Shown here piece after piece: positions 23,867 to 39,253 of a stretch of 64,000 nt of DNA. The notes beneath the pieces were generated by a model. That model saw only the letters and a program-made list of their open reading frames with translations. It was not told the origin of the DNA and did no database searches. The DNA is from Spirochaetota bacterium. Lineage in GTDB: Bacteria > Spirochaetota > Spirochaetia > Treponematales > Rectinemataceae. A program made the translations under genes and the position numbers. Location of the stretch: assembly GCA_022711355.1 (NCBI GenBank), contig JAKLFE010000007.1, positions 17,776 to 81,775 of the forward strand, written 5' to 3'. Numbering within the stretch: position 1 is the stretch's first letter; each line of letters opens with the position of its first letter.

Positions 23867-25861
23867 GTGGGGGACGGCGAGCTGGTTCCCGGGCCGCCGC
23901 GAGGGTATCATCGGCCCCGGGGGAGCCCCGAAGGGCGCCTCCCCGGGGGGCAGTGCGTGGGAGAGCGTCGGATCGAGGGCGGCAAGGATTACGTGGAACG
24001 GAGCTTCAGGCGCTGCGAGGCTCTCGGCGTGGAGCCCGACCGGGTCTACTCAAAGCGCATCCTCGGGGAGGCCGAGCTCAGGGAGAGGCTCGCGGCCAAG
24101 CGGGACCTCGTGGCCGCCGCCGAGCCCTTCATAGCGGCGCTCTACGACTTCGTCAGGGGCTCGGGCTTCTTCTCCATGCTGACCGACGAGGAGGGATGCA
24201 TCCTCTCCGTCATGGGCGACGCATCCATCCTAGAGCGGGCCTTCGCCCTCCGCATGGTGCCCGGCGCCTTCATGGACGAGGCCAGCATCGGCACGAACGC
24301 CATGGGCACGGCCCTCGCCGAGGGCAGGCCCGTGCAAGTCTCCGGCAAGGAGCACTACATCGAGGCCTACCATCGGTGGACCTGCTCCGGGGCGCCGATC
24401 CGCGACGCCGAGGGCCGCCTGATCGGCGCCCTCGACCTGACCGGAGACATCGCGGATGTGCACCAGCACACCCTCGGCATGGTCGTAGCCGCCGTCCAGG
24501 CCATCGAGAAGATCCTCGTCCTCGACGCTCGGAACCGAGCCCTCGACGAGAGCCGCCGCTTCGTGGAGGCCCTCCTCGACTCGATTACCGCGGGCATCGT
24601 CTCGGCCGACCTCGAGGGCCGGATCCTCACGGTCAACAAGCAGGCGCCCGAGCTCTTCGGCTGCGGCCGCGAGGAGCTCCTCGGATCGCGCATGGGGAGG
24701 CTCCTCCCCCGCTGGGAGGATATCCGTTCCGCCTGCCTCACGGGATCGGAGCTGCAGAACGAGGACGTCCTCGTCGAGTCGCGGACGAACAGGCTCTACC
24801 TCAACTTGGCCGTCTACCCCATCCTCGGGCCCGCCGGGGCGGGCGGCCCGCCCTCGGCCCTGATCCTCGTCTTCAAGGACGTGAAGAAGGTCAGGCGCCA
24901 CGCGAACGAGATCCTCGGCCGCCGGGCCGTCTACACCTTCGACAAGATCGTGGGCGGCTCCCGGGGGCTCCGCGAGGCCGTGGAGTTCGCCAAGAAGGTG
25001 GCCGACAGCCGCTCCACCATCCTCATCACCGGCGAGTCGGGCACGGGCAAGGAGCTATTCGCCCAGGCCATCCAGAACGCCAGCTCGCGCAGGGACGAGT
25101 CCTTCGTGGTCCTCAACTGCGGGGCCATCCCGCGCACCCTCATCGAGTCGGAGCTCTTCGGCTACGCCGAGGGCGCCTTCACCGGCGCCAAGCGGGGCGG
25201 GCATCCAGGCAAGTTCGAGATAGCCGACGGGGGCACCCTCTTCCTCGACGAGATCGGGGAGATGCCCCTCGAGATGCAAACCCGCCTCTTGCGCGTCATC
25301 GAGGAGGGGACGGTGATGCGCGTGGGCGACAGCCGCGAGATCCCCGTGGACGTGCGCATCATCGCGGCGACGAACAAGGACCTGGCGGCCGAGGTCGAGC
25401 GCGGCAACTTCCGCATGGACCTCTACTACAGGCTCAACGTCCTGCCCATACGCATCCCCGCCCTCCGGGAACGGCCCGAGGACATCCCCCTCCTCGTCGC
25501 CTACTACATGGAAAAGATATCCCGAAAGCTCAACAAGCGGCCCGTGGAGATCGGTCCCGAATACCTGAACGACCTCGTGGCCAACCCTTGGCCCGGCAAC
25601 ATCCGCGAGCTGGAGAACCTCATCGAGCTCATGATCAACAGCGAGCGCCTCCCGCCCCTGACAGGCGCCTCGCCGAAGGACGAGGGGAGCGCGGAGGGCC
25701 GCGTGCCCGTCACCTCCCTGGAGGAGGCCGAGGCCGAGCATATCCGCCGCGTCCTAGCGGACTGCGGTAACAATGTCTCCCTAGCCGCGCGGCGCCTCGG
25801 TATCGGTCGAACCACCCTGTATCGGAAGATTGCACCGAATCGAAGCAGTGTTTTAGTATAA
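23867..25861 (+). CDS. Sigma-54-dependent transcriptional activator with GAF and PAS sensor domains (AcoR/NifA-like)
   Basis: GAF-like N-terminus and PAS (…[26 protein letters not shown]…). AAA+ sigma-54 interaction domain ([11 protein letters not shown]…GAFTGA…ESELFGY). C-terminal Fis-type HTH ([20 protein letters not shown]). An alternative GTG start is possible at 23957. Confidence 0.8.
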
Positions 25862-26032
25862 GACGATTCTCATATGGCGCCTGCACTATTTTGAAACAGC
25901 TCGTCGATTCTGCATGAACCAGCACCAAAAGACTCCTGTTTTCGTTGCTACAGGCCCCTTTCTACGCCGCGTTTGACAACGTTTTATCGCCTTTGCCACA
26001 ATATTCCGCATCAAAGCGATCCACACCTCCCC

Positions 26033-26048
26033 TGGCACGGTAGTTGCT
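26033..26048 (+). promoter_or_regulatory. Sigma-54 (-24/-12) promoter for aor
   Basis: TGGCACG-gtag-TTGCT matches the consensus TGGCACG-N4-TTGCW exactly. It lies 33 nt upstream of the AGGAGG RBS and the aor ATG, directly downstream of the sigma-54 activator gene. Confidence 0.6.
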
Positions 26049-26080
26049 TTAGATACAACAACGTCGCTTTAGGAGGCACC

Positions 26081-27816
26081 ATGGACAGCATTCTGCGCAT
26101 CGATCTCGGAGCCAAGGACGGTCCTGCGATACATAAAGAGCCGGCCGGAGCCTATGCGGGCATGGGTGGCCGCGGCCTGACCTCGACCCTCGTCGCCAAG
26201 GAAGTCCCCCCCTCTGCCACGCCCTCGGCCCGGAGAACAAGCTCGTCATCGCCCCCGGCCTCCTCTCGGGGACCCCGGCCAGCCAGTCAGGCCGCCTTTC
26301 CATCGGCTGCAAGAGTCCCCTCACCGGCGGCATCAAGGAGTCCAACGCGGGCGGCCAGGCAGCCCAGGTCCTGGCTCGCTTAGGCTACGCCGCGATCGTC
26401 CTCGAGGGGATCCCGGCCGGCGCTCCCACCTACCTGATCCGCGTGAGCAAGGACGGGGCGGCCATCGAGGACGACCCGAGCCTCAAGGGCCTGGGCAACT
26501 ACGATCTTATCGAGGTCGTGAAGAAGCGCTGGGGCGAGAAGGTGGCCTGCATCTCCATCGGGCCGGCGGGCGAGATGCGCCTCGCCGCGGCCTCCATCGC
26601 CTGCACGGACATGGAGATGCACCCCACGCGCCACGCCGGCCGCGGCGGGGTCGGGGCGGTCATGGGCTCCAAGGGAGTCAAGCTCATCGTCCTCGACGAC
26701 GAGGGCTGCAAGGTCCGCGAGCCCAAGGAGCCTGAAAAGCTCAAGGCCGCCAACAAGGTCTGGGTCGAGGGCCTGAAGAAGCACCCCGTCACCGGAGGCG
26801 GCCTGCCGAATTACGGCACCAACGTCCTCACCAACATCATCAACGAGTCCGGCGGCTTCCCGACCTTCAACTTCCAGCGGGGCCAGTTCGAGGGCGCCTC
26901 CAAGATCTCCGGCGAGACCTGCGCCGCCCTCGAGACCCAGCGCGGAGGCCTGGCCACCCACGGCTGCCACCGCGGCTGCGTGATCCAGTGCTCGGGCATC
27001 TACAACGACGCGAAGGGGAACTACGTCTCAAAGCAGCCCGAGTACGAGACCGTCTGGGCCCACGGCGCCAACTGCGGCATCGACGACATGGACGCGATCG
27101 CCCTCCTCGACCGCCTCGACGACGACATCGGCCTGGACACCATCGACATGGGCGCGGCCATCGGAGTGGCCATGGAGGCCGGCCTCATCAAGTTCGGCGA
27201 CAAGGAGGGCGCCATCGACCTGGTCAGGCAGGTCGGCAAGGGCACGCCCCTGGGCCGGATCATCGGATCGGGCGCCGCCACCGTCGCCAAGGTCTTCGGC
27301 GTCGAGCGGGCCCCCGTGGTCAAGGGCCAGGCCCTGCCCGCCTACGATCCCCGCGCGATCATGGGCATCGGCGTCACCTACGCCACCACGCCCATGGGAG
27401 CCGACCACACAGCCGGCTACGCCATCGCGACCAACATCCTCAAGTGCGGCGGCTTCGTCGATCCCCTCAAGCCCGAGGGCCAGATCGAGCTGTCCCGCAA
27501 CCTCCAGATCGCGACCGCGGCGATAGACGCCACCGGCATGTGCCTCTTCATCGCCTTCGCCGTGCTCGACCAGCCCGAGACCTTCCAGGCCCTCATCGAC
27601 ATGATCAACGCCTTCTACGGCCTCTCCCTCACGGGCGACGACGTGACCGCCCTCGGCAAGTCCATACTCAAGACGGAGCGCGACTTCAACAAGGCCGCCG
27701 GCTTCACCAAGGAGATGGACAGGCTGCCTAACTACTTCAAGCGCGAGGCGGTGGCGCCGCACAACGTGACCTTCCAGGTCAAGGACGAGGACCTCGACCG
27801 GGTCTTCAACTGGTAG
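26081..27816 (+). CDS. aor: Tungsten-containing aldehyde:ferredoxin oxidoreductase (AOR family). Its reading frame is interrupted by an apparent 1-nt deletion in a C7 homopolymer at 26206-26212.
   Basis: N-terminus MDSILRIDLGAK…GGRGLTS (26081 onward) and the main ORF 26443-27816 (…GCHRGCVIQCS…) are both AOR. The AOR reading frame continues without a stop in the +1 frame from about 26213 (LCHALGPENKLVIAPGLLSGTPASQSGRLSIGCKSPLTGG…). An eighth C would restore a single ORF of about 578 aa. Confidence 0.75.
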
Positions 27817-27818
27817 CC

Positions 27819-28478
27819 GTGGCGGGCACCGCGGAGGGCCGCGCCGCCTCGGCGCGGCCCCTCACCATCGAGCTCGCCGATGGCGATCCGGCCTGGGGCC
27901 GGGCCGACGCCCTCCTCCAGGCCGGCTTCCTCCTCGAGACCAGGCCGGGAGCCAGCGCGCGGGAGTTCATGCGCGAGGCCATCGGCCTCGAGGAGGACTA
28001 CATCGAGGGCGTGGTGAGCACGGTCTTCATAGACGCCGAGCCGGTGGACGACATCGACGCCGCGACCTTGAGGCCCGATTCGCTCATCGCGCTCTCAGCG
28101 GCCATGCCGGGGCTGGCCGGGGCGGTCATGAGGCGCAAGAGCCCCTACGCCTCCTTCCGCGAGGCCATCAGCTACGCGGCGCGGGCCGGCGCCGGGCCGC
28201 GCGAGGAGGCCGCCTCGGGCGCGGGCATGCGCGCCGGCGGGAGCTCTTCGGATGCCCGGACCGCGGGGACGACCGCGCTCGTGCGGGTCAAGCTCTTCAA
28301 CTCGGTCATGCGCGACCGGGGCCGCGCGACCCTGGCCCGCGGCGTCCTCGCCGAGCCCGGGTCGGCCGCGGGAATCTGCGCCGGCCAACCCGGGGCGGCT
28401 GCTGCGGTGCTCGCGGCCGCTGCCGCGGGGAATCTCCTCCGTCTGCGCGTCCTCGCCGCAGCGGGAGGCAGGAGATGA
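27819..28478 (+). CDS. Hypothetical protein (219 aa, GTG start). Operon partner of aor and the moaD-like gene.
   Basis: GTG at 27819 falls 2 nt after the aor stop, and the ORF's 3' end overlaps the moaD-like start by 4 nt (ATGA). No recognisable family. Ala/Gly-rich C-terminus. The call rests on operon context only. Confidence 0.35.
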   Translation: MAGTAEGRAASARPLTIELADGDPAWGRADALLQAGFLLETRPGASAREFMREAIGLEEDYIEGVVSTVFIDAEPVDDIDAATLRPDSLIALSAAMPGLAGAVMRRKSPYASFREAISYAARAGAGPREEAASGAGMRAGGSSSDARTAGTTALVRVKLFNSVMRDRGRATLARGVLAEPGSAAGICAGQPGAAAAVLAAAAAGNLLRLRVLAAAGGRR

Positions 28479-28699
28479 AGGTCACCATCAAGCTCTTCGC
28501 CTCGCTCAGGGCGGGCCGCTTCGATTCGGAGCAGAGGGAGCTTCCCGCGGGCTCGGACCTGGCCGCGGCCATCACCGCTGCGGGCGTGGAGGCGAGGGAG
28601 GCCGCCGTCGTCTTCGTCAATTCGCGGCACGCCGAACCTGCTCGGCCTCTCGCCGAAGGGGACGTGGTCGCGATTTTCCCCCCGGTGGGCGGCGGCTGA
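28475..28699 (+). CDS. MoaD/ThiS-family sulfur-carrier protein (C-terminal Gly-Gly)
   Basis: 74 aa ending …FPPVGGG, a ubiquitin-like beta-grasp length. Immediately upstream of an E1-like MoeB/ThiF gene. Confidence 0.65.
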   Translation: MKVTIKLFASLRAGRFDSEQRELPAGSDLAAAITAAGVEAREAAVVFVNSRHAEPARPLAEGDVVAIFPPVGGG

Positions 28700-29517
28700 T
28701 GGGAGCGGGGCTCGCCGAGTTCCTCGCGGCCTCGGCCCGGGGCGGCCTCCTGCCCTGGCAGGCCGAGCAAGAGGCCGCCGCGCGCTACGGGGCGGGGGCG
28801 CGCGAGGTCGAGGCGGCGGCACTCGGCTCGGGGCTCATGCCCTCCCGCTACGCGCGCAACGCCGGCACGATCGGCCTGGCCGGCCAGGCCAGGCTCCACG
28901 CCGCGACGGTCGTCGTGGCGGGCTGCGGGGGCCTGGGCGGCTACCTCGTCGAGCTCCTGGCCCGCCTTGGCGTCGGCGCGATAGTGGCCGTCGACCCCGA
29001 CTCCTTCGAGGAGAGCAACCTCAACCGTCAGCTCCTGGCCACGGTCTCTAGCCTCGGCCTGCCCAAGGCCGAGGCCGCCGCTAGGAGGATTCGCGAGATC
29101 AACCCGGCGGTCATCGCGCGGCCCGTGCGGGCCATCCTGGATTCGCGCAACGCGCCGGCGATCCTCGAGGGCGCCGACGCGGTCGCCGACGGGCTGGACC
29201 GCATCGAGTCCAGGCGGGATGTCGCATCGGCCTGCGCCGCCCTGGGCGTCCCCTTCGTCCACGCGGCCGTGGCCGGTTGGTACGCCCAGGCCACGGTCCA
29301 GGCCCCGGGCTCGCGGGCGGTCGAGGAGCTCTACGGCCCGAGGGAGGGCGCGGGCGTCGAGTCGGACCTCGGCAATCCCGCCTTCGCCCCCGCCCTCGCC
29401 GCGGCCATCGAGGCGGCGGAGACATGCAAGCTCCTCCTCGGCCTAGGCCGAGGCCTGGCCGGCAGGCTGCTCTCGGTGGACCTCCTGGCCATGGAGTCGG
29501 CCGAGTTCCCCCTCTAG
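28699..29517 (+). CDS. MoeB/ThiF/HesA-family E1-like adenylyltransferase (pterin cofactor sulfur-transfer)
   Basis: Start ATG overlaps the moaD stop (TGATG). VVVAGCGGLGGYLVELLARLGVGAIVAVDPDSFEESNLNRQ is the ThiF/MoeB nucleotide-binding signature. Confidence 0.75.
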   Translation: MGAGLAEFLAASARGGLLPWQAEQEAAARYGAGAREVEAAALGSGLMPSRYARNAGTIGLAGQARLHAATVVVAGCGGLGGYLVELLARLGVGAIVAVDPDSFEESNLNRQLLATVSSLGLPKAEAAARRIREINPAVIARPVRAILDSRNAPAILEGADAVADGLDRIESRRDVASACAALGVPFVHAAVAGWYAQATVQAPGSRAVEELYGPREGAGVESDLGNPAFAPALAAAIEAAETCKLLLGLGRGLAGRLLSVDLLAMESAEFPL

Positions 29518-29525
29518 GCCGCGGA

Positions 29526-30848
29526 TCAGAACATGCAGCGGAAGAGGCCCGTGCACCAGAGGCAGGCGGCGCAGGGCTCGGCGTTCATATGGCAGTCCTG
29601 CTCGAATTCGGGGAGCTGGACGTAGTCGCAGAGCGCGAGGTTGCAGTTCAGGCAGTAAGGATACTCGTAGCGCAGGACGTTGGCGCGGAAGGCGGCGAAG
29701 GCGCGCTCGTTCCAGAGCTCGAGTATGCCTTTCTCGGCCAGGGAGCCGAAGCTCCGCGGCGCGACGCGCTTCTCGAAGCCGCCGGCGAAGCAGTCGTAGC
29801 GGTGCCAGAGGAAGTAGCAGGGGTGTATCTCCCCCGAGCGCGAGACGAAGGCAGAGCCCCCCTCGACGAACTCGCACTCGCGCGCGCTCCTCGGCGCGAC
29901 CGCGGGCAGGGAGATATCGAGGCCGCGGGCGGCGGCCTCCTCGGCCGCCGCGCCGAAGGCCGCGCGGGCGCGCTCCGCGAGTCCGGGATCGAGCCGCAGG
30001 AGGCGCTCGACGTTGAGCGATATGCCCCTAGCCTGGGCTTCGTCCTGCATCCGCGTTACCAGGCTCACTATCTCCCGCTCCTCGGGGTCCTTGTCGTAGC
30101 GCATGAAGACCTCGGGATATCGGCCTATGTCGACGCCGCGCGCCTGGCCCTCGGCCCGGTAGCGCCCGAGCAGCTCGCGGGCGAGGTCGAGGCTCGCGTC
30201 GTAGGCCGCCTCGGCGAGGGCCTCCCGGCCGTAGGGCAGGAGCTGGCTCACGACGACGAAGCGCGCCCCCTTCATGGCGGCCCAGCGAACGAGGTCAGGC
30301 AGCTCCTCGAGGTTGCTCTTCCGCGCGACGACCTCGATGCCGAGGAAGAAGTCCCCCCTGCCCGCATCCCTCGCCGCGCGGCCCAGGGCCTCGACCGAGG
30401 CCGAGGCCGCACCGAGCTCTCCTCCCGCCCGAATGCCGCGAAAGAGCTCGGGATCAAGCGAGTCGAGGGAGACGCAGGCGCGGTCGAGGCCGGCGTCGAG
30501 GAGGCCGAGGGCTCGTTCCCGGTCTACGAGGAGGCCGTTCGTCTGGAAGCCGATCTGGCCCGAGGCGGGCATCGAACGCCGCGCCAGGCGAATGAAGAGC
30601 TCGAGCCCCGGATGAAGGAGGGGCTCGCCCAGGCCGCTCAGGACGAGGGAATCGAGGTGGGGGAAGGCTGGCTCGAGGGCGCGGAAGACATCCTCGCCCA
30701 TGTCTCCCCAGTCCCCGCTGGCCATGCCCTCGCTCTGCCGCGGACAGGCGGCGCAGGCGAGGTTGCAGCGCGTCGTGGTCTCGACGACGAGGCGGGAGGG
30801 ATAGGCGAGGAGGGCCTTCTCGCCCATCCCGGGGCCTTCTCGAACCAT
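29526..30848 (-). CDS. Radical SAM / SPASM-domain protein, Cmo-like (MoaA/PqqE-related) 'cofactor-modifying' enzyme adjacent to aor
   Basis: CNLACAACP (CX3CX2C) radical-SAM cluster motif. Cys-rich C-terminal SPASM-like region (…CYFLWH…CLNCNLALCDY…CAACLWC…). The start is uncertain: ATG at 30848 or 30827, and the ORF extends to 30992. Confidence 0.7.
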   Translation of the reverse strand: MVREGPGMGEKALLAYPSRLVVETTTRCNLACAACPRQSEGMASGDWGDMGEDVFRALEPAFPHLDSLVLSGLGEPLLHPGLELFIRLARRSMPASGQIGFQTNGLLVDRERALGLLDAGLDRACVSLDSLDPELFRGIRAGGELGAASASVEALGRAARDAGRGDFFLGIEVVARKSNLEELPDLVRWAAMKGARFVVVSQLLPYGREALAEAAYDASLDLARELLGRYRAEGQARGVDIGRYPEVFMRYDKDPEEREIVSLVTRMQDEAQARGISLNVERLLRLDPGLAERARAAFGAAAEEAAARGLDISLPAVAPRSARECEFVEGGSAFVSRSGEIHPCYFLWHRYDCFAGGFEKRVAPRSFGSLAEKGILELWNERAFAAFRANVLRYEYPYCLNCNLALCDYVQLPEFEQDCHMNAEPCAACLWCTGLFRCMF

Positions 30849-30989
30849 GTGCGAAGCTTCCGGCAGACCGCCCCGCCTTGTCAATATCGCGAGTCCGACG
30901 ATAGCGCCTGCCCGGCTCGCCGAGATGCACGATGTCCCGGAGCAGGGCTCCAGGGGCTCTTCAGCGTAGCCGCGCTTTAGGACTTGACA

Positions 30990-31020
30990 CATTGTACTAG
31001 TTCAATCATCATTGTACTAG
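30990..31020 (+). repeat. Two copies of an 11-bp direct repeat (CATTGTACTAG) spaced 20 bp apart. Candidate GntR/YtrA operator overlapping the promoter.
   Basis: Exact repeats at 30990-31000 and 31010-31020. TTGACA lies at 30984-30989. The region is AT-rich relative to the surroundings. Confidence 0.4.
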
Positions 31021-31032
31021 ATGAATAGGACA

Positions 31033-31419
31033 ATGATCGATCGGGACTTCCGCGTCGCCCTGGACGCCTCGGGCGGGGTTCCCTTCTACCGCCAGATCAT
31101 CCAGCAGATCGAGCACGCGATCCTCGCGCGGAAGCTCGAGCCGGGGGACCGGCTCCCGACCATCCGCGCCCTCGCCATCGAGCTCAAGATCAACCCGAAC
31201 ACCATAGCCCGGGCCTACGGGGAGCTCGAGATCAGGGGGATCGTCGTCACCCAGGTGGGCAGCGGCACCTACGTCTCGAACCGCCCCGTGGACTCGGCCC
31301 GGGCCGAGCTCGAGAGCAGGATCGAGGCGAAGGTCGCCGCCTTCGTCCGCGACATGGAGGCCCTCGGGCTGGACCGGGAGCGGGCCATCGGGCTCATCCG
31401 CGATTACGAGGAGGATTGA
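31033..31419 (+). CDS. GntR-family transcriptional regulator, short YtrA-like subfamily
   Basis: Winged-HTH (PGDRLPTIRALAIELKINPNTIARAYGEL) plus a short C-terminal helical domain, about 130 aa in total. Start is chosen at the Met preceded by AGGA. An upstream ATG at 31021 is also in frame. Confidence 0.7.
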   Translation: MIDRDFRVALDASGGVPFYRQIIQQIEHAILARKLEPGDRLPTIRALAIELKINPNTIARAYGELEIRGIVVTQVGSGTYVSNRPVDSARAELESRIEAKVAAFVRDMEALGLDRERAIGLIRDYEED

Positions 31420-31420
31420 T

Positions 31421-32581
31421 ATGTGGTTCCCCAGAAAAGCCGAGGAGCAGCCCCTGATCAAGAACGCCCGGAGGGAGGGCCGGCGGCGGGACTTCGGCTT
31501 GAGCGCCGTCGGGCTCGGCCTCCTCGCCCTCCTCGCGGCCTTCGGAATAGCCGCGCGGCTCCTCGCGGGGCCGGCGCCCTCGGCCCTGGACTTCGGCCTC
31601 CTCCTCGGGGCGCCCCTGGCCTCCGCGGCCGCGATGACCCTTTTCCCGCGCTGGAGCGCGGCCCTGAAATTCCTCATCCTGGCGGCCTGCGCCGCCGCGG
31701 CCTGGAAGCTCTCGCGGGGCGGGGGCGGGGCCCCGGGCCTCTCGCTCGCCTTCGCGACGACGGGGACCCTCGCCGCCCCCATGGTCCAGAAGCTGGAGGA
31801 GTGGGAGCGGGCCATCGTCCTGCGCTTCGGGAAGTTCCTCCGCGTGCGGGGGCCGGGGCTCTTCCTCATCGCGCCCCTCGCGGACCGGGTCGCGCGCGTG
31901 GTGGACCTCCGCATCCGCGTGACGGATTTCTCCGCGGAGACGACCCTGACCCGCGACTCGGTGACGGTGACGGTCGACGCCCTCTGCTTCTGGCTCGTTT
32001 GGGACGCGGAAAAGGCGGTCTGCGAGGTCCAGGACTTCGAGGAGGCCGTCGTCCTCTCCTCCAAGACCGCCCTCCGCAACGCGATCAGCAAGAACGACCT
32101 CTCCGCCTTCCTCGAGCGCGGGGACGAGATCGAGGAGCAGATCAGGGACGAGGTGGACAAGAAGACCACCGAGTGGGGCATCACGGTCCAGCACATCGAG
32201 ATCACCGACATCCAGATACCCGAGGTCCTCCAGGACTCCTTGAGCCGCCTCGCCCAGGCCGAGCGGGAGAAGAAGGGCCGGATACTCCTGGCCGAGGCCG
32301 AGATCGAGATCGCCCGCCGCCTCGAGGAGGCGGCGCGGATCTACGACGCGCACGAGACGGCCATGAAGCTCAAGAGCCTGTCCATCCTGAACGAGGGCCT
32401 CAAGGCCGGGAACTCCATGATGCTCGTGCCCAACTCCATCACCGAGGAGCTCAAGTCGAAGGACCTCTTCGGCCTCCAGGCCCTCGGCGAGGCGAGGCGG
32501 CGCGAGGCCGGGACGGACCCGGGCGTAGGGCGAGGGGCCTCGGGGAAAGGGGACGGGGCTCCCGAGGGAGGGCGGCCATGA
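31421..32581 (+). CDS. SPFH/band-7 (stomatin/prohibitin-like) membrane protein with an extended multi-TM N-terminus
   Basis: SPFH core (…IVLRFGKFLRVRGPGLFLIAPLADRV…VDLR…) and a C-terminal coiled coil (AEAEIEIARRLEEAAR). About 120 aa of hydrophobic N-terminus. Confidence 0.7.
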   Translation: MWFPRKAEEQPLIKNARREGRRRDFGLSAVGLGLLALLAAFGIAARLLAGPAPSALDFGLLLGAPLASAAAMTLFPRWSAALKFLILAACAAAAWKLSRGGGGAPGLSLAFATTGTLAAPMVQKLEEWERAIVLRFGKFLRVRGPGLFLIAPLADRVARVVDLRIRVTDFSAETTLTRDSVTVTVDALCFWLVWDAEKAVCEVQDFEEAVVLSSKTALRNAISKNDLSAFLERGDEIEEQIRDEVDKKTTEWGITVQHIEITDIQIPEVLQDSLSRLAQAEREKKGRILLAEAEIEIARRLEEAARIYDAHETAMKLKSLSILNEGLKAGNSMMLVPNSITEELKSKDLFGLQALGEARRREAGTDPGVGRGASGKGDGAPEGGRP

Positions 32582-33261
32582 AGGTCGTGGAGACGGCCGG
32601 CCTGTCCAAGGACTACTCGCTCAACGGCATCACCGTGAGCGCGCTCCGGGGCGTGAGCCTGGCCTTCGAGAGCGGGGAGTTCGCGGCGGTCGCGGGTCCC
32701 TCGGGGAGCGGCAAGTCGACCTTCCTCCACCTCGTCGGCTGCCTCGACGCGCCGAGCGCCGGCTCGGTCTCCATCGCCGGGACCGACGTCGCATCCCTCT
32801 CGCGCAGGGAGCTCGCCCTCCTCCGCCGCGGCAGCATCGGCTTCGTGTTCCAGGCCTACAACCTCATTCCCGTCCTCAGCGCGGCGGAGAACGTGTCCCT
32901 GCCCCTCACCCTCCTCGGCGTCCCGGCGGCAGAGGCGCGCGAGCGCGCCGGGCGCGCCCTCGAAGAGGTGGGGCTCGCGGAGCTGGGCAAGCGGAGGCCC
33001 AAGGAGATGTCGGGGGGCCAGCAGCAGCGCGTCGCGATAGCCCGGGCCCTGGTCAAGAAGCCCGCCCTCATCCTCGCCGACGAGCCCACCGCTAACCTCG
33101 ACTCGAAGACGGGCCGCGAGATCCTCGAGCTCATGCTCGCCCTCAATAGGAGCGAGGGCACGACCTTCATCTTCTCCACACACGACGCCATGGTCATGGA
33201 GTACGCGAGGAGGCTCGTCCTCCTCCGGGACGGGCTCGTCGAGACGGAGCGGACGAGATGA
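32578..33261 (+). CDS. ABC transporter ATP-binding protein, MacB/LolD/FtsE-type
   Basis: Walker A GPSGSGKST, signature LSGGQQQRVAIARAL, Walker B ILADEPT. ATG overlaps the SPFH stop (ATGA). Confidence 0.85.
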   Translation: MKVVETAGLSKDYSLNGITVSALRGVSLAFESGEFAAVAGPSGSGKSTFLHLVGCLDAPSAGSVSIAGTDVASLSRRELALLRRGSIGFVFQAYNLIPVLSAAENVSLPLTLLGVPAAEARERAGRALEEVGLAELGKRRPKEMSGGQQQRVAIARALVKKPALILADEPTANLDSKTGREILELMLALNRSEGTTFIFSTHDAMVMEYARRLVLLRDGLVETERTR

Positions 33262-34772
33262 GCGCGGCGGGGGCGCGCGACATCGCGGCCATGGCGCTGC
33301 GCAACCTCTCCCGGCACAAGGCCAAGACCGCCATCACCGCGGTCGCCGTCGCCGTGAGCGTCTCCCTCTACATCTTCATGGACGGCTGGCTCCTGGGCAT
33401 GAACCTCGACTCGAGGCGGAACATCGTCTCCTACGAGATCGGGGCCGCGAAGGTCCAGGCTGCGGCCTACTTCGAGAAGAAGGACGAGCTGCCGATGCAC
33501 GAGTCCTTCGCGGGCTGGAAGCCCCTGGCCGAGAGCCTGGAGCGCGCGGGCTACGCGGTCGCCCCGCGCTTCGTCTTCTCCGGCACCCTGTACTCGCGCT
33601 CGGGCTCGGCTCCCCTCGTCATCGACGCCGTGGACGTCGGCCTCGAGGGCCGGGTCCTGCGCTATCCCTCCTCGCTCGAGGCGGGGCGCTTCCCCGCCCC
33701 GGGCCGGCTCGAGCTGGCCATCGGCTCCATGGCCGCGGAGAAGCTCCGCGTCGGCATACCCTCCCGTCCGACGCCCGAGGAGCTCGAGGAGCTCGCCGGG
33801 GCGGCCCGGGACGCCGAGGAGGAGGCCTTCGTGCGCGGCCTCTACGGCCCCGCCCCCGAGGACGAGGCCGCAGCCGCCCTCGAGGCCCGCAAGCTCGCCC
33901 TGAAGCCCGGGGCCTCGGAGGCCGAGCTCGCGAGGCTCTGGGAGATACTCTCGGCCTCGGGGCGGATGGACGTCCGCATCTCGACGGTCATCGACCAGAA
34001 GGCCGAAGACGGCTCGGGCAGGATCCTCCACGTCAACCAGCTCATCGACGCATCCGTCGTCGGCGTGATCAACTCGCCCAACCCCAAGACCAACGGCAAC
34101 GTGGCCTTCATGCCCCTCGACAGCCTCCAGGACGAGGCGGGCCTCATGCTCGGGGGCAAGGTGACGGAGCTCCTCGTGCGCCGCTCGGGCGCGAGCGACG
34201 CCGAGCTCCCGGGCAGGGACGAGAGCGCGGCCGCCGTCAGGGAGGCCCTCGGCCCCGCCCTGCCCCCGGGCCTCGAGGTCCACGGCTGGCTGGACTACGT
34301 CGACGACTACATCGCCGCCTCGCGGGGCGACCAGGTCTCGACGCGGATCATGATCCTCATGCTCTTCGTCCTCTCCTTCATCGGGATAGCCAACACCATG
34401 CTCATGGCCATCCTCGAGCGCACCAAGGAGACGGGCATGCTCAGGGCCCTGGGCATGACCGACGGCCAGGTGGTCGCCGCCTACATGATCGAGGCGGCCT
34501 GCATCGGGGCGATGGGCTCCCTCGCCGGCATCGCGATCGGATGCCTCATCAACGTCCCGATGGTGGCCCACGGGCTGGACTACTCGGCGATGGCCGAGCA
34601 GATCGGGGGCGACTACGGCTACCGCATCACCGCCCTCTTCCGCTCCGCCTGGAACCCGCCCGTCATCGTCCTATCGGGCATCGTCGCCACCGCGCTCTCC
34701 GCCGCGGCGGCCCTCCTCCCGAGCCTGCGGGCGCTCAGGATGCCGGTGACCGAGAGCCTGCGCTTCGAGTGA
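33258..34772 (+). CDS. ABC transporter permease, FtsX/MacB-like (LolC/E-like), with a large periplasmic domain
   Basis: N-terminal TM, about 250-aa periplasmic domain, then a 3-TM FtsX core (MILMLFVLSFIGIANTML…). Confidence 0.75.
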   Translation: MSAAGARDIAAMALRNLSRHKAKTAITAVAVAVSVSLYIFMDGWLLGMNLDSRRNIVSYEIGAAKVQAAAYFEKKDELPMHESFAGWKPLAESLERAGYAVAPRFVFSGTLYSRSGSAPLVIDAVDVGLEGRVLRYPSSLEAGRFPAPGRLELAIGSMAAEKLRVGIPSRPTPEELEELAGAARDAEEEAFVRGLYGPAPEDEAAAALEARKLALKPGASEAELARLWEILSASGRMDVRISTVIDQKAEDGSGRILHVNQLIDASVVGVINSPNPKTNGNVAFMPLDSLQDEAGLMLGGKVTELLVRRSGASDAELPGRDESAAAVREALGPALPPGLEVHGWLDYVDDYIAASRGDQVSTRIMILMLFVLSFIGIANTMLMAILERTKETGMLRALGMTDGQVVAAYMIEAACIGAMGSLAGIAIGCLINVPMVAHGLDYSAMAEQIGGDYGYRITALFRSAWNPPVIVLSGIVATALSAAAALLPSLRALRMPVTESLRFE

Positions 34773-34783
34773 GGAGGAAGGCC

Positions 34784-36058
34784 ATGGAGGGGCGGATGGA
34801 AGGGACAGGCGGCCTCGGGGCGCTCGCCACGATCGCGTACCGCAACATCTGGCGGAACGGGAGGCGCACGGCCCTCTGCGTCGTCGCCGTCGCGATCGCG
34901 GTCTTCTTCAACATCTTCATGCAGTCCTGGATCGACGGCATGATGGACAGCATCGAGGAGGTCGTGCGCACCTTCGAGACGGGCCACGTCAACGTCGTCT
35001 CCTCGGGCTTCGAGGCGGAGCGGGAGTACTGCCCGGTCCAGTACCCCATCGCCGAGGGCCGGAGCGCCGACGAGCTCGCCGACGAGATCGAGGCCCTGCC
35101 GGGGGTCCGCGCGGCCCTGCCGCGGATCACGGCCTACGCGACCCTCTTCGACTCCACCGTCAAGCACGCCCTCCTCTGGGGCGTGCGCCCCGCGCGCGAG
35201 CTGGCGATCAACCACTGGAACCTCACCGACCGCGACGATGGCCTCGTCGCGGGCCGCTTCCCCGGGGAGGGAGCCAACGAGTGCGCCATCGGCGCGGCCC
35301 TCGCCCGCAAGACCGGGCTCGGGATCGGCGACAAGCTGCCCCTCAAGACGGTCTCCGCGCAGTTCTCGGACAAGTACTGGAGCCCGACCATCGTCGGCGT
35401 CTTCGAGTTCGACTACGCGAGGTACGACGAGGGGGTCATCCTCGTCTCCTTCGAGCGCCTCGGGCGCATCCTCGGCCTCGGGGGCGCGACGCAGCAGCTC
35501 TTCGTCTACGCCGAGGAGGCCGGGCGCAGCGCCGAGCTCAGGGACGAGGTCGCGCGCCTGCTCGGCCCGGGCCACGTCGTCCGCGAGTGGGCCGACAATT
35601 ACTGGGTCGCCGTCATGCGCCAGAGCTCCTTCCTCTACGTCATCGTCTTCGCCGTGTTCCAGGTGGTGGCGAGCTTCCTCATCGTCAACACGGTCCTCAT
35701 GGTGATCCACGAGCGGATCAAGGAGATCGGCATGATGGGCGCCCTCGGGATGACCAGGCGCGAGATCGTGCTGGTCTTCTTCTTCGAGGCCTTGATCCTG
35801 AGCGTCATCGGCGCCCTCGCGGGCTGCCTCCTCGGGGGCCTCGTCACCAAGGTCGGCTCCCTCTTCCCCATCGACACGGAGGTCTTCACGGGAGGCGGCA
35901 TGAAGGACCTGCCTTTCTCCGGGACCATCTTCATCGCATTCTCCCCGGCGAACATCGCGAGGGGATTCGCCTTCGGCGTGGCCGTCTCGGCGGCCTGCAC
36001 CATCCTGCCCTCGCTGAAGAGCGCCTTCGTGGAGCCCGTCGAGGCACTCCGGCGCTAG
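34784..36058 (+). CDS. ABC transporter permease, FtsX/MacB-like (second copy)
   Basis: Same architecture as the preceding gene. RBS GAGGAGGAAGG precedes the ATG at 34784. Confidence 0.75.
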   Translation: MEGRMEGTGGLGALATIAYRNIWRNGRRTALCVVAVAIAVFFNIFMQSWIDGMMDSIEEVVRTFETGHVNVVSSGFEAEREYCPVQYPIAEGRSADELADEIEALPGVRAALPRITAYATLFDSTVKHALLWGVRPARELAINHWNLTDRDDGLVAGRFPGEGANECAIGAALARKTGLGIGDKLPLKTVSAQFSDKYWSPTIVGVFEFDYARYDEGVILVSFERLGRILGLGGATQQLFVYAEEAGRSAELRDEVARLLGPGHVVREWADNYWVAVMRQSSFLYVIVFAVFQVVASFLIVNTVLMVIHERIKEIGMMGALGMTRREIVLVFFFEALILSVIGALAGCLLGGLVTKVGSLFPIDTEVFTGGGMKDLPFSGTIFIAFSPANIARGFAFGVAVSAACTILPSLKSAFVEPVEALRR

Positions 36059-36079
36059 GTCCGGGAAAAGGAGCGCGTT

Positions 36080-36829
36080 ATGCGAACTAAATACTTCCGG
36101 GCGGCCCTCGCCGCCCTCGCCCTCGCCTCGGCCGGCGCCGCGGCGGCAGCCGCCCCGAGCGCCGCCTCGCTCCTCGAGCGCGTGGACGCGAACGAGGTCT
36201 ACGCCTCGATCAGCTACGAGGGCGAGATGGTCATCGAGTACCAGGGCAAGCGCTACGTGAAGACCTTCGCCGCCTCGGCGAAGGGCTCGGCCAACAGCTA
36301 CGTGGAATTCACGAACCCCGAGGACCGAGGCACCAAGTACCTGAAGAAGGAAGGCCGGCTCTACGTCTACTCGCCGGACGCCGAGGAGGTGATGCTCATC
36401 TCGGGCCACCTGCTCAAGGAGTCGATGATGGGCTCGGACCTCTCCTACGAGGACACGATCGACAACGAGACCCTCTCGGCCCGCTACGTCCCGACCCTCG
36501 CGGGCGAGGAGGAGGCCGGGGGAAGGAGGGCCTGGGTCCTCGACCTCGCCGCCAAGAGGAGGACCGAGAGCTACCCGAGGCAGAAGCTCTGGATCGACGC
36601 CGAGACGGGGGACCTCCTCCGCTACGAGCTCTACGCCCTCTCGGGGGCCAAGCTCAAGGAGTACCGCCTCATCAAGGCCGAGCCCATCGGGGACCGGCGC
36701 TTCCCCGTCGAGGGAGAGATGCGCGACCTCCTGCGCAAGGGCAGCCGGACGGTATTCAAGATGAGGAAGGTCGTCCTCGACGCCCCGATCCCCGATTCCC
36801 TGTTCAGCATGAAGAGCCTCGAACGATGA
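36080..36829 (+). CDS. LolA-like periplasmic protein ('outer membrane lipoprotein-sorting protein' fold)
   Basis: Signal peptide with an Ala-rich cleavage region. About 220-aa mature domain with the LolA-like beta-barrel pattern (…VEFTNPEDRGTKYLKKEGRLYVYSPD…KLWIDAETGDLLRYELY…). Confidence 0.6.
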   Translation: MRTKYFRAALAALALASAGAAAAAAPSAASLLERVDANEVYASISYEGEMVIEYQGKRYVKTFAASAKGSANSYVEFTNPEDRGTKYLKKEGRLYVYSPDAEEVMLISGHLLKESMMGSDLSYEDTIDNETLSARYVPTLAGEEEAGGRRAWVLDLAAKRRTESYPRQKLWIDAETGDLLRYELYALSGAKLKEYRLIKAEPIGDRRFPVEGEMRDLLRKGSRTVFKMRKVVLDAPIPDSLFSMKSLER

Positions 36830-38115
36830 GCGCGCGGCGCCTCGAGAAGCGCGCGGGAAGCCGCGCGCGGCGCGCCCTCGGCCGCCTATCGCGCCTGGCC
36901 CTGGCCCTCCTCTGCGCGGCCCCGCGGGCCTTCGCCGAGCCCGAGCTCTCGGGCTCCATCGAGTCGGGCCTGTCGGGCTCGGCGGGGACAGGGGGAGCCG
37001 CCGCCTTCTCCTGCGGCTTCGAGGAATTCGCCAACCTCAGGCTGAGGACGAGGGTCGGGGAGGCGGGGACGGTCTACGCGGCGATCAACCTGGTCGCGGC
37101 CTCGGGCGAGGCGGCGCGGAGGGCCGCCCTCCTCGAGGCCGCCGCGCCGGGCCCCCTCGCGGCCTCCTCCTTCGCCGCGGGCTCGGGCTACGCCGCGGCC
37201 CTCGAGCTCGAGCGCCTCTACTTCCGCCTCGAGGGCGAGGGCGCCGACCTCCAGGCCGGCCTCCAGCGCCTGGCCTTCGGCTACGGCCAGGCCTTCAGCC
37301 CCTCGGACTTCCTCAGCCCGCCCAATCCCCTCCACCCCGAGGCCCGGCCCCGGGGGCGCCTGGGCCTCGCGGCCTCGGCCTACCCCGCGGACTCGGCCAA
37401 GCTCGGGGCCTTCGCCTTCGCGGGGACCGATCCCCTCGAGGCCGACGGGGGCGGGACCCTCCTCGGCGCCCAGGCGGAGCTCCACGGCGCGGCGGCGAGC
37501 ATCCAGGCCCTCTACGCCTTCGAGGCGCCGGGCCCGGAGGCGGAGCTCGGCCTCCACCGCGCCGGCCTCTCGCTCAAGCTCGAGGCCGGGGCGGGCATAG
37601 CGCTCGACCTGCTGTACAGCTACGACGCCGAGGATCCCGCGGGCCTCGCCGGCCTCGAGGCGAGCCTCGGCGCCGACTACTCATTCCTGGACGGCGACCT
37701 CTACGTCCTGGGCCAGTACCTCTACAACGGGCCCGGCCCCCTCGACCCGGAGGACGAGATCGGAGAGCTCTACGCCGAGGCAGGCTGGTACGAGACCGCC
37801 CCCCTCGAGCGGCTCCCGGCCGCGGAGGGGCTACGCGAACTCAACCGGAGGAACTACCTCTACGCCTCGCTCGCCTATCGCGTCGATGACTACACGAGCG
37901 CGACGCTCTCCTGCCTGGCCGGCCTCGACGACCTCTCCTTCTCGCCCGCGCTGGAGCTGGAGCACGAGCCCTTCCAGGGCATGGTTCTGAGCTGCCGCTG
38001 CCGCCTCCCCCTGGACCCGCGGAGCTTCTCCTCGGGCGGGGAGCGGGGCGAGCTCGGCCCCGACAACTCGGGCAGCCTGGCCTCGGTGGAGCTCAAGGCG
38101 AAGCTGCGCTTCTAG
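36826..38115 (+). CDS. Predicted outer-membrane beta-barrel protein
   Basis: Signal peptide, alternating amphipathic segments, C-terminal …ELKAKLRF (terminal Phe). Start overlaps the LolA-like stop (ATGA). Confidence 0.5.
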   Translation: MSARRLEKRAGSRARRALGRLSRLALALLCAAPRAFAEPELSGSIESGLSGSAGTGGAAAFSCGFEEFANLRLRTRVGEAGTVYAAINLVAASGEAARRAALLEAAAPGPLAASSFAAGSGYAAALELERLYFRLEGEGADLQAGLQRLAFGYGQAFSPSDFLSPPNPLHPEARPRGRLGLAASAYPADSAKLGAFAFAGTDPLEADGGGTLLGAQAELHGAAASIQALYAFEAPGPEAELGLHRAGLSLKLEAGAGIALDLLYSYDAEDPAGLAGLEASLGADYSFLDGDLYVLGQYLYNGPGPLDPEDEIGELYAEAGWYETAPLERLPAAEGLRELNRRNYLYASLAYRVDDYTSATLSCLAGLDDLSFSPALELEHEPFQGMVLSCRCRLPLDPRSFSSGGERGELGPDNSGSLASVELKAKLRF

Positions 38116-38149
38116 ACGGCCGGGGAGCGTCCGGGATGGGGACTCAACA

Positions 38150-39253
38150 TCAAAGATTAAACTTGAAGAAAATAACGTCCCCGTCCTGGACGACGTACTC
38201 GCGGCCCTCCTGGCGGAGCTTGCCGGCGGCCTTGATGGCGTGCTCGGAGCCGAGGGCCTCGAGGTCGGCGTAGCGGTAGACCTCGGCCTTGATGAAGCCC
38301 TTCTCGAAGTCGGTGTGGATGACGCCCGCGGCCGCCGGGGCCTTGTCCCCGGCCTTGATCGTCCAGGCCCGGCACTCGTCCTCCCCCGCCGTGAAGAAGG
38401 TCCGCAGCCCCAGGAGATGGTAGGCCGCGTGGATCAGGGCGGAGAGGCCCGACTCCTCCAGGCCGAGCTCGGAGAGGAAGTCGCGCTTCTCCTCCTCGCT
38501 CTCGAGGTCGGCGAGCTCGGCCTCGAACTTGCCGCAGATGACCACGCACTCGGCGCCCTCGGCGGCGGCGATCCCCTTGACCGCCTCGATATGCGCGTTG
38601 CCCGACCTCACTCCCTCCTCGTCCGCGTTGCAGACGTAGATCTCGCGCTTGACCGTGATGAGGAAGGAGCGCTTGAGGGCCTCGGCCTCCTCGGCGTCGA
38701 GGGCCACGGATCGGGCGGGCCGGCCCTCCTGGAGGGCGGGGCGGATCTTGTCGAAGGCCGCGAGCTCGCGCTCGGCCTCCTTCTTCTTGGCCTGGTCCTT
38801 GAGCTCCTTCTGGAGCTTCTCGGCCCGCTTGTCGATGGTCTCGAGGTCGGCCAGGGCGAGCTCGAGGTGGAGCATCTCGATGTCGTCGGCCGGGCTGACC
38901 TTGTTGGAGACATGGGGCACCTCGGGGTCCTCGAAGCAGCGCACGACGTGGACCATGAGGGCCGAGTCCCGGATGTGGGAGAGCATCTGGTTGGTGGCGC
39001 CCTCCTTCTTGGAGGCGGCGGAGGCGAGGCCCGCGATATCCACGAACTCGACGGTGGCTGGCACGCGGCGCTTGGGCTTGAAGAGCTCGGTCAGCTTGTC
39101 CAGGCGGACGTCGGGCACGGCGACGATGCCGAGGTTGGGATTCTTCGAGCCCGAGGAGAAGCTCGAGGTCTCGGCCTTCACCCTCGTCAGGGCGGTGAAG
39201 ATGGTGGTCTTGCCCACGGTGGGCAGGCCGATGATTCCGCAGTTAAGGGGCAT
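38150..39253 (-). CDS. ychF: Ribosome-binding ATPase YchF (Obg-like)
   Basis: MPLNCGIIGLPTVGKTTIFTALT G1 motif, TGS C-terminal domain, 367 aa. Confidence 0.9.
   Translation of the reverse strand: MPLNCGIIGLPTVGKTTIFTALTRVKAETSSFSSGSKNPNLGIVAVPDVRLDKLTELFKPKRRVPATVEFVDIAGLASAASKKEGATNQMLSHIRDSALMVHVVRCFEDPEVPHVSNKVSPADDIEMLHLELALADLETIDKRAEKLQKELKDQAKKKEAERELAAFDKIRPALQEGRPARSVALDAEEAEALKRSFLITVKREIYVCNADEEGVRSGNAHIEAVKGIAAAEGAECVVICGKFEAELADLESEEEKRDFLSELGLEESGLSALIHAAYHLLGLRTFFTAGEDECRAWTIKAGDKAPAAAGVIHTDFEKGFIKAEVYRYADLEALGSEHAIKAAGKLRQEGREYVVQDGDVIFFKFNL

Follow-up and report, generated by a model that had tools for sequence, protein, structure and literature searches.

A spirochete operon joining a Lol-like ABC transporter, a LolA-like carrier and an unnamed outer-membrane barrel: a candidate inducible route for hydrophobic cargo

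Spirochetes lack LolB; a canonical LolA of the BB0346 type, essential in Borrelia, has reported homologues in 150 diverse spirochetes, Treponemataceae and environmental lineages included (PMC11326224). Two further described arrangements are close to the locus studied here. In Borrelia burgdorferi, export of non-polar ligands was proposed in silico for the lp38 genes BBJ23-BBJ29 (PMC13078400), and in Proteobacteria the genes of DUF1302 and DUF1329 proteins are adjacent and cofit with an RND and a BNR protein, an association for which export of envelope components was proposed (bioRxiv 10.1101/072470). Here we describe a seven-gene operon (31021-38115, + strand) lying in a stretch of 64,000 nucleotides, called the window below, from contig JAKLFE010000007.1 of a Spirochaetota bacterium of the Rectinemataceae (assembly GCA_022711355.1). 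We found no experimental study of this cluster in the literature. With a probability of about 0.55, we read the operon as a self-contained, inducible and accessory Lol-like route that would extract a hydrophobic cargo and deliver it, ending at a dedicated barrel related to DUF1302. What is new here is the barrel family, which has no Pfam entry, and a predicted promoter-operator region that is unusually conserved.

In order, the genes encode a GntR regulator of the YtrA type, an SPFH protein, an ABC ATPase, two FtsX permeases (FtsX1 and FtsX2), a LolA-like carrier and an outer-membrane (OM) beta-barrel protein (OMP). An earlier examination of the letters alone (the sequence-only reading) had described seven co-directional genes with ATGA overlaps or short gaps, and this was indeed the case. 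One nucleotide separates the gntR stop (31419) from the SPFH start (31421); the SPFH/ABC and ABC/FtsX1 junctions are ATGA overlaps (32578-32581 and 33258-33261); FtsX1 (stop 34772) and FtsX2 (start 34784) are 11 nt apart, with GGAGGA inside the gap; the largest gap, 21 nt, lies between the FtsX2 stop (36058) and the carrier start (36080), and the carrier and OMP genes again share an ATGA (36826-36829). Two starts had to be revised, as that of FtsX2 was corrected to 34784 and position 30984, given as the start of the operon, corresponds to the TTGACA −35 box rather than to a codon; it stands as the start of the promoter, the gntR ATG being at 31021. Since the whole window is about 70% G+C, long spurious open reading frames (ORFs) are found on both strands. 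We used the G+C content at each codon position as the criterion to part real genes from spurious ORFs, and the separation was clean: the seven ORFs each had a GC3 of 0.94-0.98 and a GC2 of 0.42-0.54. All seven genes are real and coding-like, and Pfam and NCBIfam confirmed the family assignment of six of the seven proteins. Three antisense ORFs of 400-596 aa cover the operon (31009-32211, 32856-34571 and 34619-36409, all on the − strand); without the coding GC1/GC2/GC3 pattern, they were rejected as genes and are by-products of the 70% G+C.

The FtsX-FtsX-LolA-like-OMP arrangement recurs in other genomes, as a synteny check proposed by the sequence-only reading made clear. We counted 27 non-redundant spirochete loci with at least 7.8 kb of upstream sequence: the five-gene core (ABC, FtsX1, FtsX2, LolA-like, OMP) was present in 27/27 and all seven genes in 22/27, GntR and SPFH being always both present or both absent. 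The identical order of seven genes was found in Sediminispirochaeta bajacaliforniensis and in a termite-gut Treponema between unrelated flanks, and the seven-gene arrangement is far beyond chance. A scan with the barrel alignment, at one genome per species, returned 117 relatives, all Spirochaetota, among them Treponema, Breznakiella, Brucepastera, Sediminispirochaeta and metagenome-assembled genomes (MAGs); none of the 80 loci listed of these 117 belonged to Borrelia, Leptospira or Brachyspira. A divergent branch of the barrel family (A2, see below) leads outside the spirochetes. The five non-spirochete contexts of this branch that we examined all hold the ABC-FtsX-FtsX-PF17131-barrel core, without GntR or SPFH, and Ca. 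Coatesbacteria are among the organisms concerned. Upstream sequence was available for four of these contexts, and in three a different one-component regulator is encoded directly upstream, of the TetR (L087), MmpR5/MarR (L088) or HTH_34/HTH_5 (L089) type, and in the fourth (L085) a TetR gene is found at a greater distance upstream. When one-component repressors are exchanged ahead of a transporter core that is itself conserved, this usually points to an inducible exporter. The five genes of the core form an ancient module extending beyond the spirochetes, and the GntR and SPFH front end is a control unit specific to spirochetes. As for the neighbours of the operon in the window, radical SAM/SPASM, ThiF, AFOR and YchF genes adjoin the cluster in 0 of 89 related loci; the unit is therefore self-contained.

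Some genomes carry the cluster twice. In Treponema sp. Kf353_bin129 the copies are on two contigs (L053, L071). In Spirochaetia bacterium MS495-79 (BNUT01000001.1) two apparently identical copies (L009, L010) are oppositely oriented on one contig, their starts about 30 kb apart, and this could be a true inverted duplication or an assembly artefact.

We then looked at the engine of the operon. The ATPase (32578..33261, + strand, 227 aa; ABC_tran, E 1.8e-32) is of the LolD/MacB type; its best NCBIfam match was LolD (TIGR02211), with 216.6 bits for a cut-off of 307.75, followed by DarD, FtsE, DevA and MacB. The LolE-like FtsX1 (33258..34772, +, 504 aa; FtsX domain) has a first transmembrane (TM) segment at residues 28-46, a periplasmic part at 47-363 and three C-terminal TMs. 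When the profile of its orthologs was compared with the Protein Data Bank (PDB), LolF, YtrF and LolE (7e-11) came above LolC (9e-7), and the top Foldseek matches of its AlphaFold2 (AF2) model (pLDDT 82.7) were the LolE chains of LolCDE-lipoprotein complexes (E 2e-18); many FtsX1 orthologs match MacB_PCD too. The LolC-like FtsX2 (34784..36058, +, 424 aa) carries MacB_PCD and FtsX domains, and its nearest PDB sequences are E. coli LolC (2.3e-12), LolF (8e-11) and LolE (8.5e-7). On TIGR02212 (LolC/E) the permeases scored 47.1 and 98.9 bits, the latter being FtsX2, for a cut-off of 362.45. The type VII (MacB/Lol) ABC with two permeases that the sequence-only reading had recognized is thus confirmed, with FtsX2 nearest LolC and FtsX1 nearest LolE by profile and by fold. 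The periplasmic domain of FtsX1 is about 90 residues larger than that of FtsX2 (~317 versus ~226 residues); it bears a helical insert (residues ~165-235) whose length varies between spirochetes, in proteins of ~500-600 aa, and which is absent in the non-spirochete orthologs (~411-420 aa). Some FtsX1 orthologs are 580 aa long or longer. Taken together, these profile and model comparisons make the engine most like the lipoprotein extractor LolCDE among the solved systems, while its scores stay far short of the Lol equivalog thresholds.

The carrier gene (36080..36829, + strand) encodes a protein of 249 aa that matches LolA_like PF17131 with an E of 4.7e-45, under a TP_0789-like label. A profile made from eight diverse orthologs aligned over its full length with the structures 4z48 (3e-27), 3buu (3.5e-25), 9tp6 and 3bk5, so that the LolA-type fold expected for this protein is supported by homology to four solved structures of the LolA superfamily and not by modelling. 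Because 70 of 71 carrier orthologs have a type I signal peptide without a lipobox, the carrier is a soluble, non-lipidated periplasmic protein; it is in this respect unlike the namesake of the family, T. pallidum TP0789, a predicted and abundant lipoprotein (PMC5015957). No match to PF03548, the LolA family proper, was obtained even at an E of up to 1, the carrier matching PF17131 and, weakly, MucB_RseB only. The same 4-nt overlap of the called carrier and barrel genes is kept in distant lineages, which suggests that the two proteins may form a stoichiometric pair.

At residues 107-123 of the carrier, the orthologs of the cluster share one motif without variation, inside and outside the spirochetes: ISGH(L/M)L..(S/G).MGSD.SYED. 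Its His marks the carrier subfamily of the cluster, since other residues take its place in each of the four PF17131 structures that have been solved. We also considered the carrier as an esterase, given the Ser, His and Asp of the motif, and rejected this idea: a catalytic triad is unsupported, as the His is not kept in these four structures.

The features of the engine and the carrier bear on the simplest alternative, namely that the operon is the housekeeping Lol pathway, composed of LolD, LolE, LolC and a divergent LolA, in which the barrel replaces LolB as the OM acceptor. The kinship of the permeases with LolC and LolE and that of the ATPase with LolD fit this explanation, as does the fact that LolB is missing in spirochetes (PMC11326224), and neither further Lol-like nor canonical Lol genes were seen among the scanned genes of the 64-kb window. 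Several observations nevertheless make it quite improbable. The scores are far under the equivalog cut-offs (47 and 99 versus 362 bits for the permeases, 217 versus 308 for the ATPase), the carrier belongs to PF17131 instead of PF03548, and the operon has a dedicated repressor with two putative operators. Moreover, the barrel occurs in 117 species-level genomes only, with the three genera named above absent from the 80 listed loci, and some genomes have two copies (L053, L071). Finally, LolA homologues of the BB0346 type are reported in 150 diverse spirochetes (PMC11326224), from which we argue for the PF17131 system as a further route. An accessory role, as opposed to a housekeeping one, is thus indirectly supported by repressor control, patchy distribution, LolCDE scores below the cut-offs and a PF17131 carrier.

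The last gene (36826..38115, + strand) encodes a protein of 429 aa from an unnamed family, without any Pfam or NCBIfam family match or PDB sequence match. The AlphaFold2 model, obtained with 49 homologues, predicts a monomeric barrel of 18 antiparallel strands (pLDDT 87.2, pTM 0.81) whose turns are short on the periplasmic side and whose loops are long on the outside; a signal peptide is present, and the C-terminal residue is an invariant Phe. The call of an OM beta-barrel made from the letters is in agreement with this model and with its nearest folds, OprD/Occ, ChiP and maltoporin. Within the family, conservation is highest in loop L3 (residues 148-177), which carries the motif FGYGQxWxPSDFLNPxNPLxPDARPRG. 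When 1.84 billion representatives were searched by profile, 705 relatives came up, 100 of them at E <=1e-30.

Two alignments were used to place this family, A1 for the spirochete barrels and A2 for the divergent branch, which includes proteins of Ca. Coatesbacteria and of a Bacillota-labelled MAG. In hhalign, A1 and A2 were related with a probability of 100% (E 3.7e-51), and A2 matched P0385, a DUF1302 protein, with a probability of 97.3% (E 2.7e-11) over 248 columns that include the L3 motif. P0385 is a bona fide DUF1302 (PF06980 at 74.9 bits), the window barrel having no PF06980 match in Pfam; weak matches were seen among 27 distant barrel members, to PF06980 in 3/27 and to Wzi in 4/27, and one distant carrier passes the DUF1329 cut-off as well as that of PF17131. 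The barrel thus appears to be a remote homologue of DUF1302 by a transitive link only, and the operon looks like a DUF1302/DUF1329-like outer-membrane pair placed on a different engine. For the DUF1302 barrels themselves, the strand number is given as 18 in one place and 16 in another (bioRxiv 10.64898/2026.03.07.710327). P0385, a metagenomic protein of 589 aa, also bears an N-terminal AMIN domain, of a kind that associates with peptidoglycan and that secretins and amidases are known to contain.

The nearest folds of the barrel are substrate-uptake channels, and many spirochetes rely on exogenous lipids. One may thus ask whether the operon takes up exogenous hydrophobic nutrients (fatty acids, esters or sterols), which the barrel would admit, the LolA-like protein ferry inward and the ABC transporter drive into the inner membrane or process. 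The need for the DUF1302/DUF1329 genes in P. putida for growth on Tween 20 and on butyl stearate and other fatty esters points the same way (bioRxiv 10.1101/2020.07.04.188060). We regard uptake as unlikely, given that type VII ABCs (MacB/Lol/FtsEX) have no transmembrane path for a substrate and no known importer member (PMC5985334), that the permeases resemble those of the extractor LolCDE, and that the TetR, MarR and YtrA repressors encoded upstream are typical of exporters.

The control region upstream of gntR was remarkable for its conservation. A near-consensus promoter of the sigma-70 type, TTGACA and CATCAT separated by a 17-nt spacer (30984..31012, + strand), is the sole promoter-like site in the 7.6 kb from 30800 to 38400, and its TTGACA-17-TAnnAT layout is kept across 28 loci. 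The promoter-operator block of about 50 bp (30984-31035) is near-identical base by base in 28 genomes whose G+C content ranges from 39 to 71%; when the 28 gntR upstream regions were aligned on the −35 box, the consensus was TTGACAtATTGTACTAGTnCAttTAnnATTGTACTAGATGAATAGTACAA. Two putative operators are found in this block. The first, O1 (30993..31004), is a near-palindrome, TGTACTAGTtCA, located between the −35 and −10 boxes and kept as (T)TGTACTAGTnCA in the 28 genomes, its palindromic form across loci being TGTACTAGTACA. The second, O2 (31012..31033), has as its first base the final one of the −10 box and extends across the gntR ATG; it is an inverted repeat, TTGTACTA-N6-TAGgACAA, of form TTGTACTA-N6-TAGTACAA across loci, with a consensus TTGTACTAGATGAATAGTACAA that is near-invariant in the 28 loci. 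The exact word TTGTACTAG occurs in the window at O1 and O2 only, and when up to one mismatch was allowed we obtained 7 matches versus 0.9 expected. We infer that the GntR protein binds both sites. The gntR ATG is 8 nt past the −10 hexamer and without a Shine-Dalgarno sequence; the gntR mRNA is therefore probably leaderless or provided with a very short leader. Codons 1-4 of gntR (ATG AAT AGT ACA) are fixed across loci because they form half of O2. A dedicated repressor that would regulate its own gene is thus well supported by sequence.

The product of gntR (31021..31419, + strand, 132 aa) has a GntR winged helix at residues 23-85 (PF00392, E 3e-17). Its alignments with short structures of the YtrA type, 4r1h, 4ham, 3by6, 3neu and 2du9 (125-134 aa), are full-length, in keeping with the YtrA-type regulator named by the sequence-only reading. 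Indeed, it has the organization of this subfamily, an N-terminal winged helix followed by a short C-terminal dimerisation region of ~50-60 aa for a total of ~120-135 aa, and its gene is the first of an ABC operon with putative palindromic operators in its own promoter. Its best NCBIfam matches, both under the cut-off, were Rv1152 and PmtR, the latter of which represses the PSM exporter in S. aureus. The second gene (31421..32581, + strand) encodes a stomatin/QmcA-type SPFH protein of 386 aa, whose Band_7 domain (residues 125-296, E 2e-34) and PDB matches (stomatin 7e-36, QmcA 4.6e-28, HflK just 5e-7) bear out the initial SPFH call. In the orthologs, a basic N-terminus is followed by two to four TM segments, a topology in which the SPFH domain is most likely on the cytoplasmic face. 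The operon has no NfeD partner gene, the SPFH protein having its own N-terminal extension of two to four TMs. It is plausible that this protein scaffolds or corrals the ABC complex; it is dispensable, as it is missing in 5/27 spirochete loci and in all the non-spirochete loci examined.

A YtrA-type regulator recalls those that repress ytrABCDEF in B. subtilis and pmt in S. aureus, YtrF is among the structural relatives of FtsX1, and SPFH/flotillin genes are found in envelope-stress regulons of Firmicutes. These points, together with an SPFH gene that is predicted to be co-transcribed and a carrier/barrel ATGA overlap suggestive of a fixed complex, raise the possibility of a defence against envelope stress or antimicrobials of the BceAB/YtrBCDEF kind, where the ABC mechanotransducer would free or shield a target, or activate a periplasmic partner, the LolA-like protein and the barrel being static. 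We hold this to be rather unlikely: an outer-membrane component is foreign to the Bce and Ytr systems, BceB is a more distant relative than LolC and LolE, and a soluble LolA-fold protein and an OM barrel are strictly co-inherited with the ABC transporter in every lineage, for which a hand-over chain is the simplest explanation.

We thus favour an accessory Lol-like route for a hydrophobic cargo, which could work as follows. The repressor would keep a strong promoter closed and would be released by a signal that comes from the envelope or is hydrophobic. The cargo, which might be a lipid-like molecule, a lipopeptide or a specialised lipoprotein, would be passed by the LolC-like subunit to the LolA-like shuttle, and the shuttle would dock on the dedicated barrel. 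The latter would stand in for LolB, or for MFP-TolC, and insert or release the cargo at the outer membrane or at the cell surface, and the SPFH oligomer would probably corral or stabilise the ABC complex within a membrane microdomain. Some points weigh against this scheme. The cargo, the direction of export and the physical interactions of the cluster members are all things that we infer; GntR and SPFH are missing from 5/27 spirochete loci, so neither is obligatory; the direct comparison of A1 with P0385 was not significant, which makes the DUF1302 link a transitive one; and the growth of P. putida on Tween 20 and fatty esters, for which DUF1302/DUF1329 are needed, could mean uptake or processing instead of export (bioRxiv 10.1101/2020.07.04.188060).

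A wider proposal, which we put forward only tentatively, is that a LolA-like carrier and a DUF1302-type barrel of 18 strands constitute a general OM receiver module, not recognised before, that can be coupled to one or the other of two unrelated inner-membrane engines, a type VII ABC, as here, or an RND protein, as in Proteobacteria. The ABC version would be a distinct class of inducible exporters in spirochetes, Coatesbacteria and others, with a soluble shuttle in place of an MFP-TolC duct. If this is true, the cargo brought to the cell surface could be lipids, lipopeptides or surface lipoproteins, in bacteria that have no LolB and, in the case of treponemes, no lipopolysaccharide (LPS) either. 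The link to DUF1302/DUF1329 would also give a mechanistic frame to a widespread proteobacterial pair with fitness phenotypes. The operon is in any case a compact candidate route for hydrophobic delivery to the OM or the cell surface in spirochetes and other non-model diderms, and it offers several handles: a defined regulator with its putative operator, a soluble carrier that could be purified together with its ligand, and a new barrel family. Since the cluster is present in the cultivable Breznakiella homolactica, Brucepastera parasyntrophica, Treponema primitia and Sediminispirochaeta, the proposal is directly testable.

The surroundings of the operon were also inspected. Upstream (23867-30992) are a sigma-54 activator (GAF/PAS), an aldehyde:ferredoxin oxidoreductase (AFOR), a familyless ORF of 219 aa, a ThiF/MoeB-like protein and a divergent radical-SAM/SPASM protein, a set that looks like a tungsten- or molybdopterin-AOR maturation cluster. 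The radical-SAM/SPASM gene (29526-30992, − strand) and the DarD-like score of the ATPase raised the idea of RiPP export, which was rejected as no radical-SAM gene lies beside the cluster in the 89 loci. On the − strand, a 1143-aa ORF (17444-20875) has a coding-like GC3 of 0.94 and no Pfam match at an E of up to 1e-3. The other genes of the window are ordinary housekeeping genes (shikimate pathway, GDH, UvrA, PhoH-YbeY-CorC, YchF, aminotransferases and sigma-54 activators).

How does this operon compare with the known systems? It shares with E. coli LolCDE-LolA-LolB a type VII ABC with a single ATPase gene and a pair of unlike 4-TM FtsX permeases, one LolC-like and one LolE-like, the MacB-type periplasmic domains of these permeases and a soluble periplasmic protein of the LolA superfamily. 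It differs by its scores under the Lol equivalog cut-offs, by a carrier of PF17131 and not PF03548, by a periplasmic domain of FtsX1 that is ~90 residues larger through its helical insert, and by its repressor, its SPFH gene and its patchy distribution. Its OM partner is an 18-stranded barrel in place of a LolB-type lipoprotein, and no conserved lipobox was found in any protein of the operon. The Borrelia BBJ23-29 cluster, the closest system described, also brings an OM barrel and a PF17131 LolA-like protein together with an ABC ATPase and FtsX; however, the Borrelia barrel is Omp85-like and is accompanied by two TPR proteins and a single FtsX, whereas no operon protein qualifies as Omp85 or TPR.

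With the DUF1302/DUF1329/BNR/RND (COG1033) cluster, the operon has in common an 18-stranded barrel, here a transitive remote homologue of DUF1302, and a LolA/LolB-like periplasmic protein side by side, served by an inner-membrane energiser. Here this energiser is a type VII ABC and not an RND protein, neither an RND (COG1033) nor a BNR-repeat protein being encoded in any of the cluster loci examined; the carrier is of PF17131, and the barrel, ~150 residues shorter than DUF1302, misses the Pfam model. MacAB-TolC likewise has an ABC engine of the MacB superfamily, frequent repressor control and substrates from the periplasm or the outer leaflet. In contrast, the permeases of the operon are separate from the ATPase and heterodimeric and there is no trimeric duct of the TolC type, an HlyD-family adaptor and a TolC-family OM factor being absent from the operon and from its conserved relatives. 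Lastly, the YtrA-regulated operons, B. subtilis ytrABCDEF and S. aureus pmtR-pmtABCD, resemble it in that an ABC exporter operon opens with the gene of a short YtrA-type GntR repressor, and YtrF is an FtsX/MacB_PCD permease. Those operons belong to monoderms and possess neither a periplasmic carrier nor an OM protein, both of which the spirochete operon encodes.

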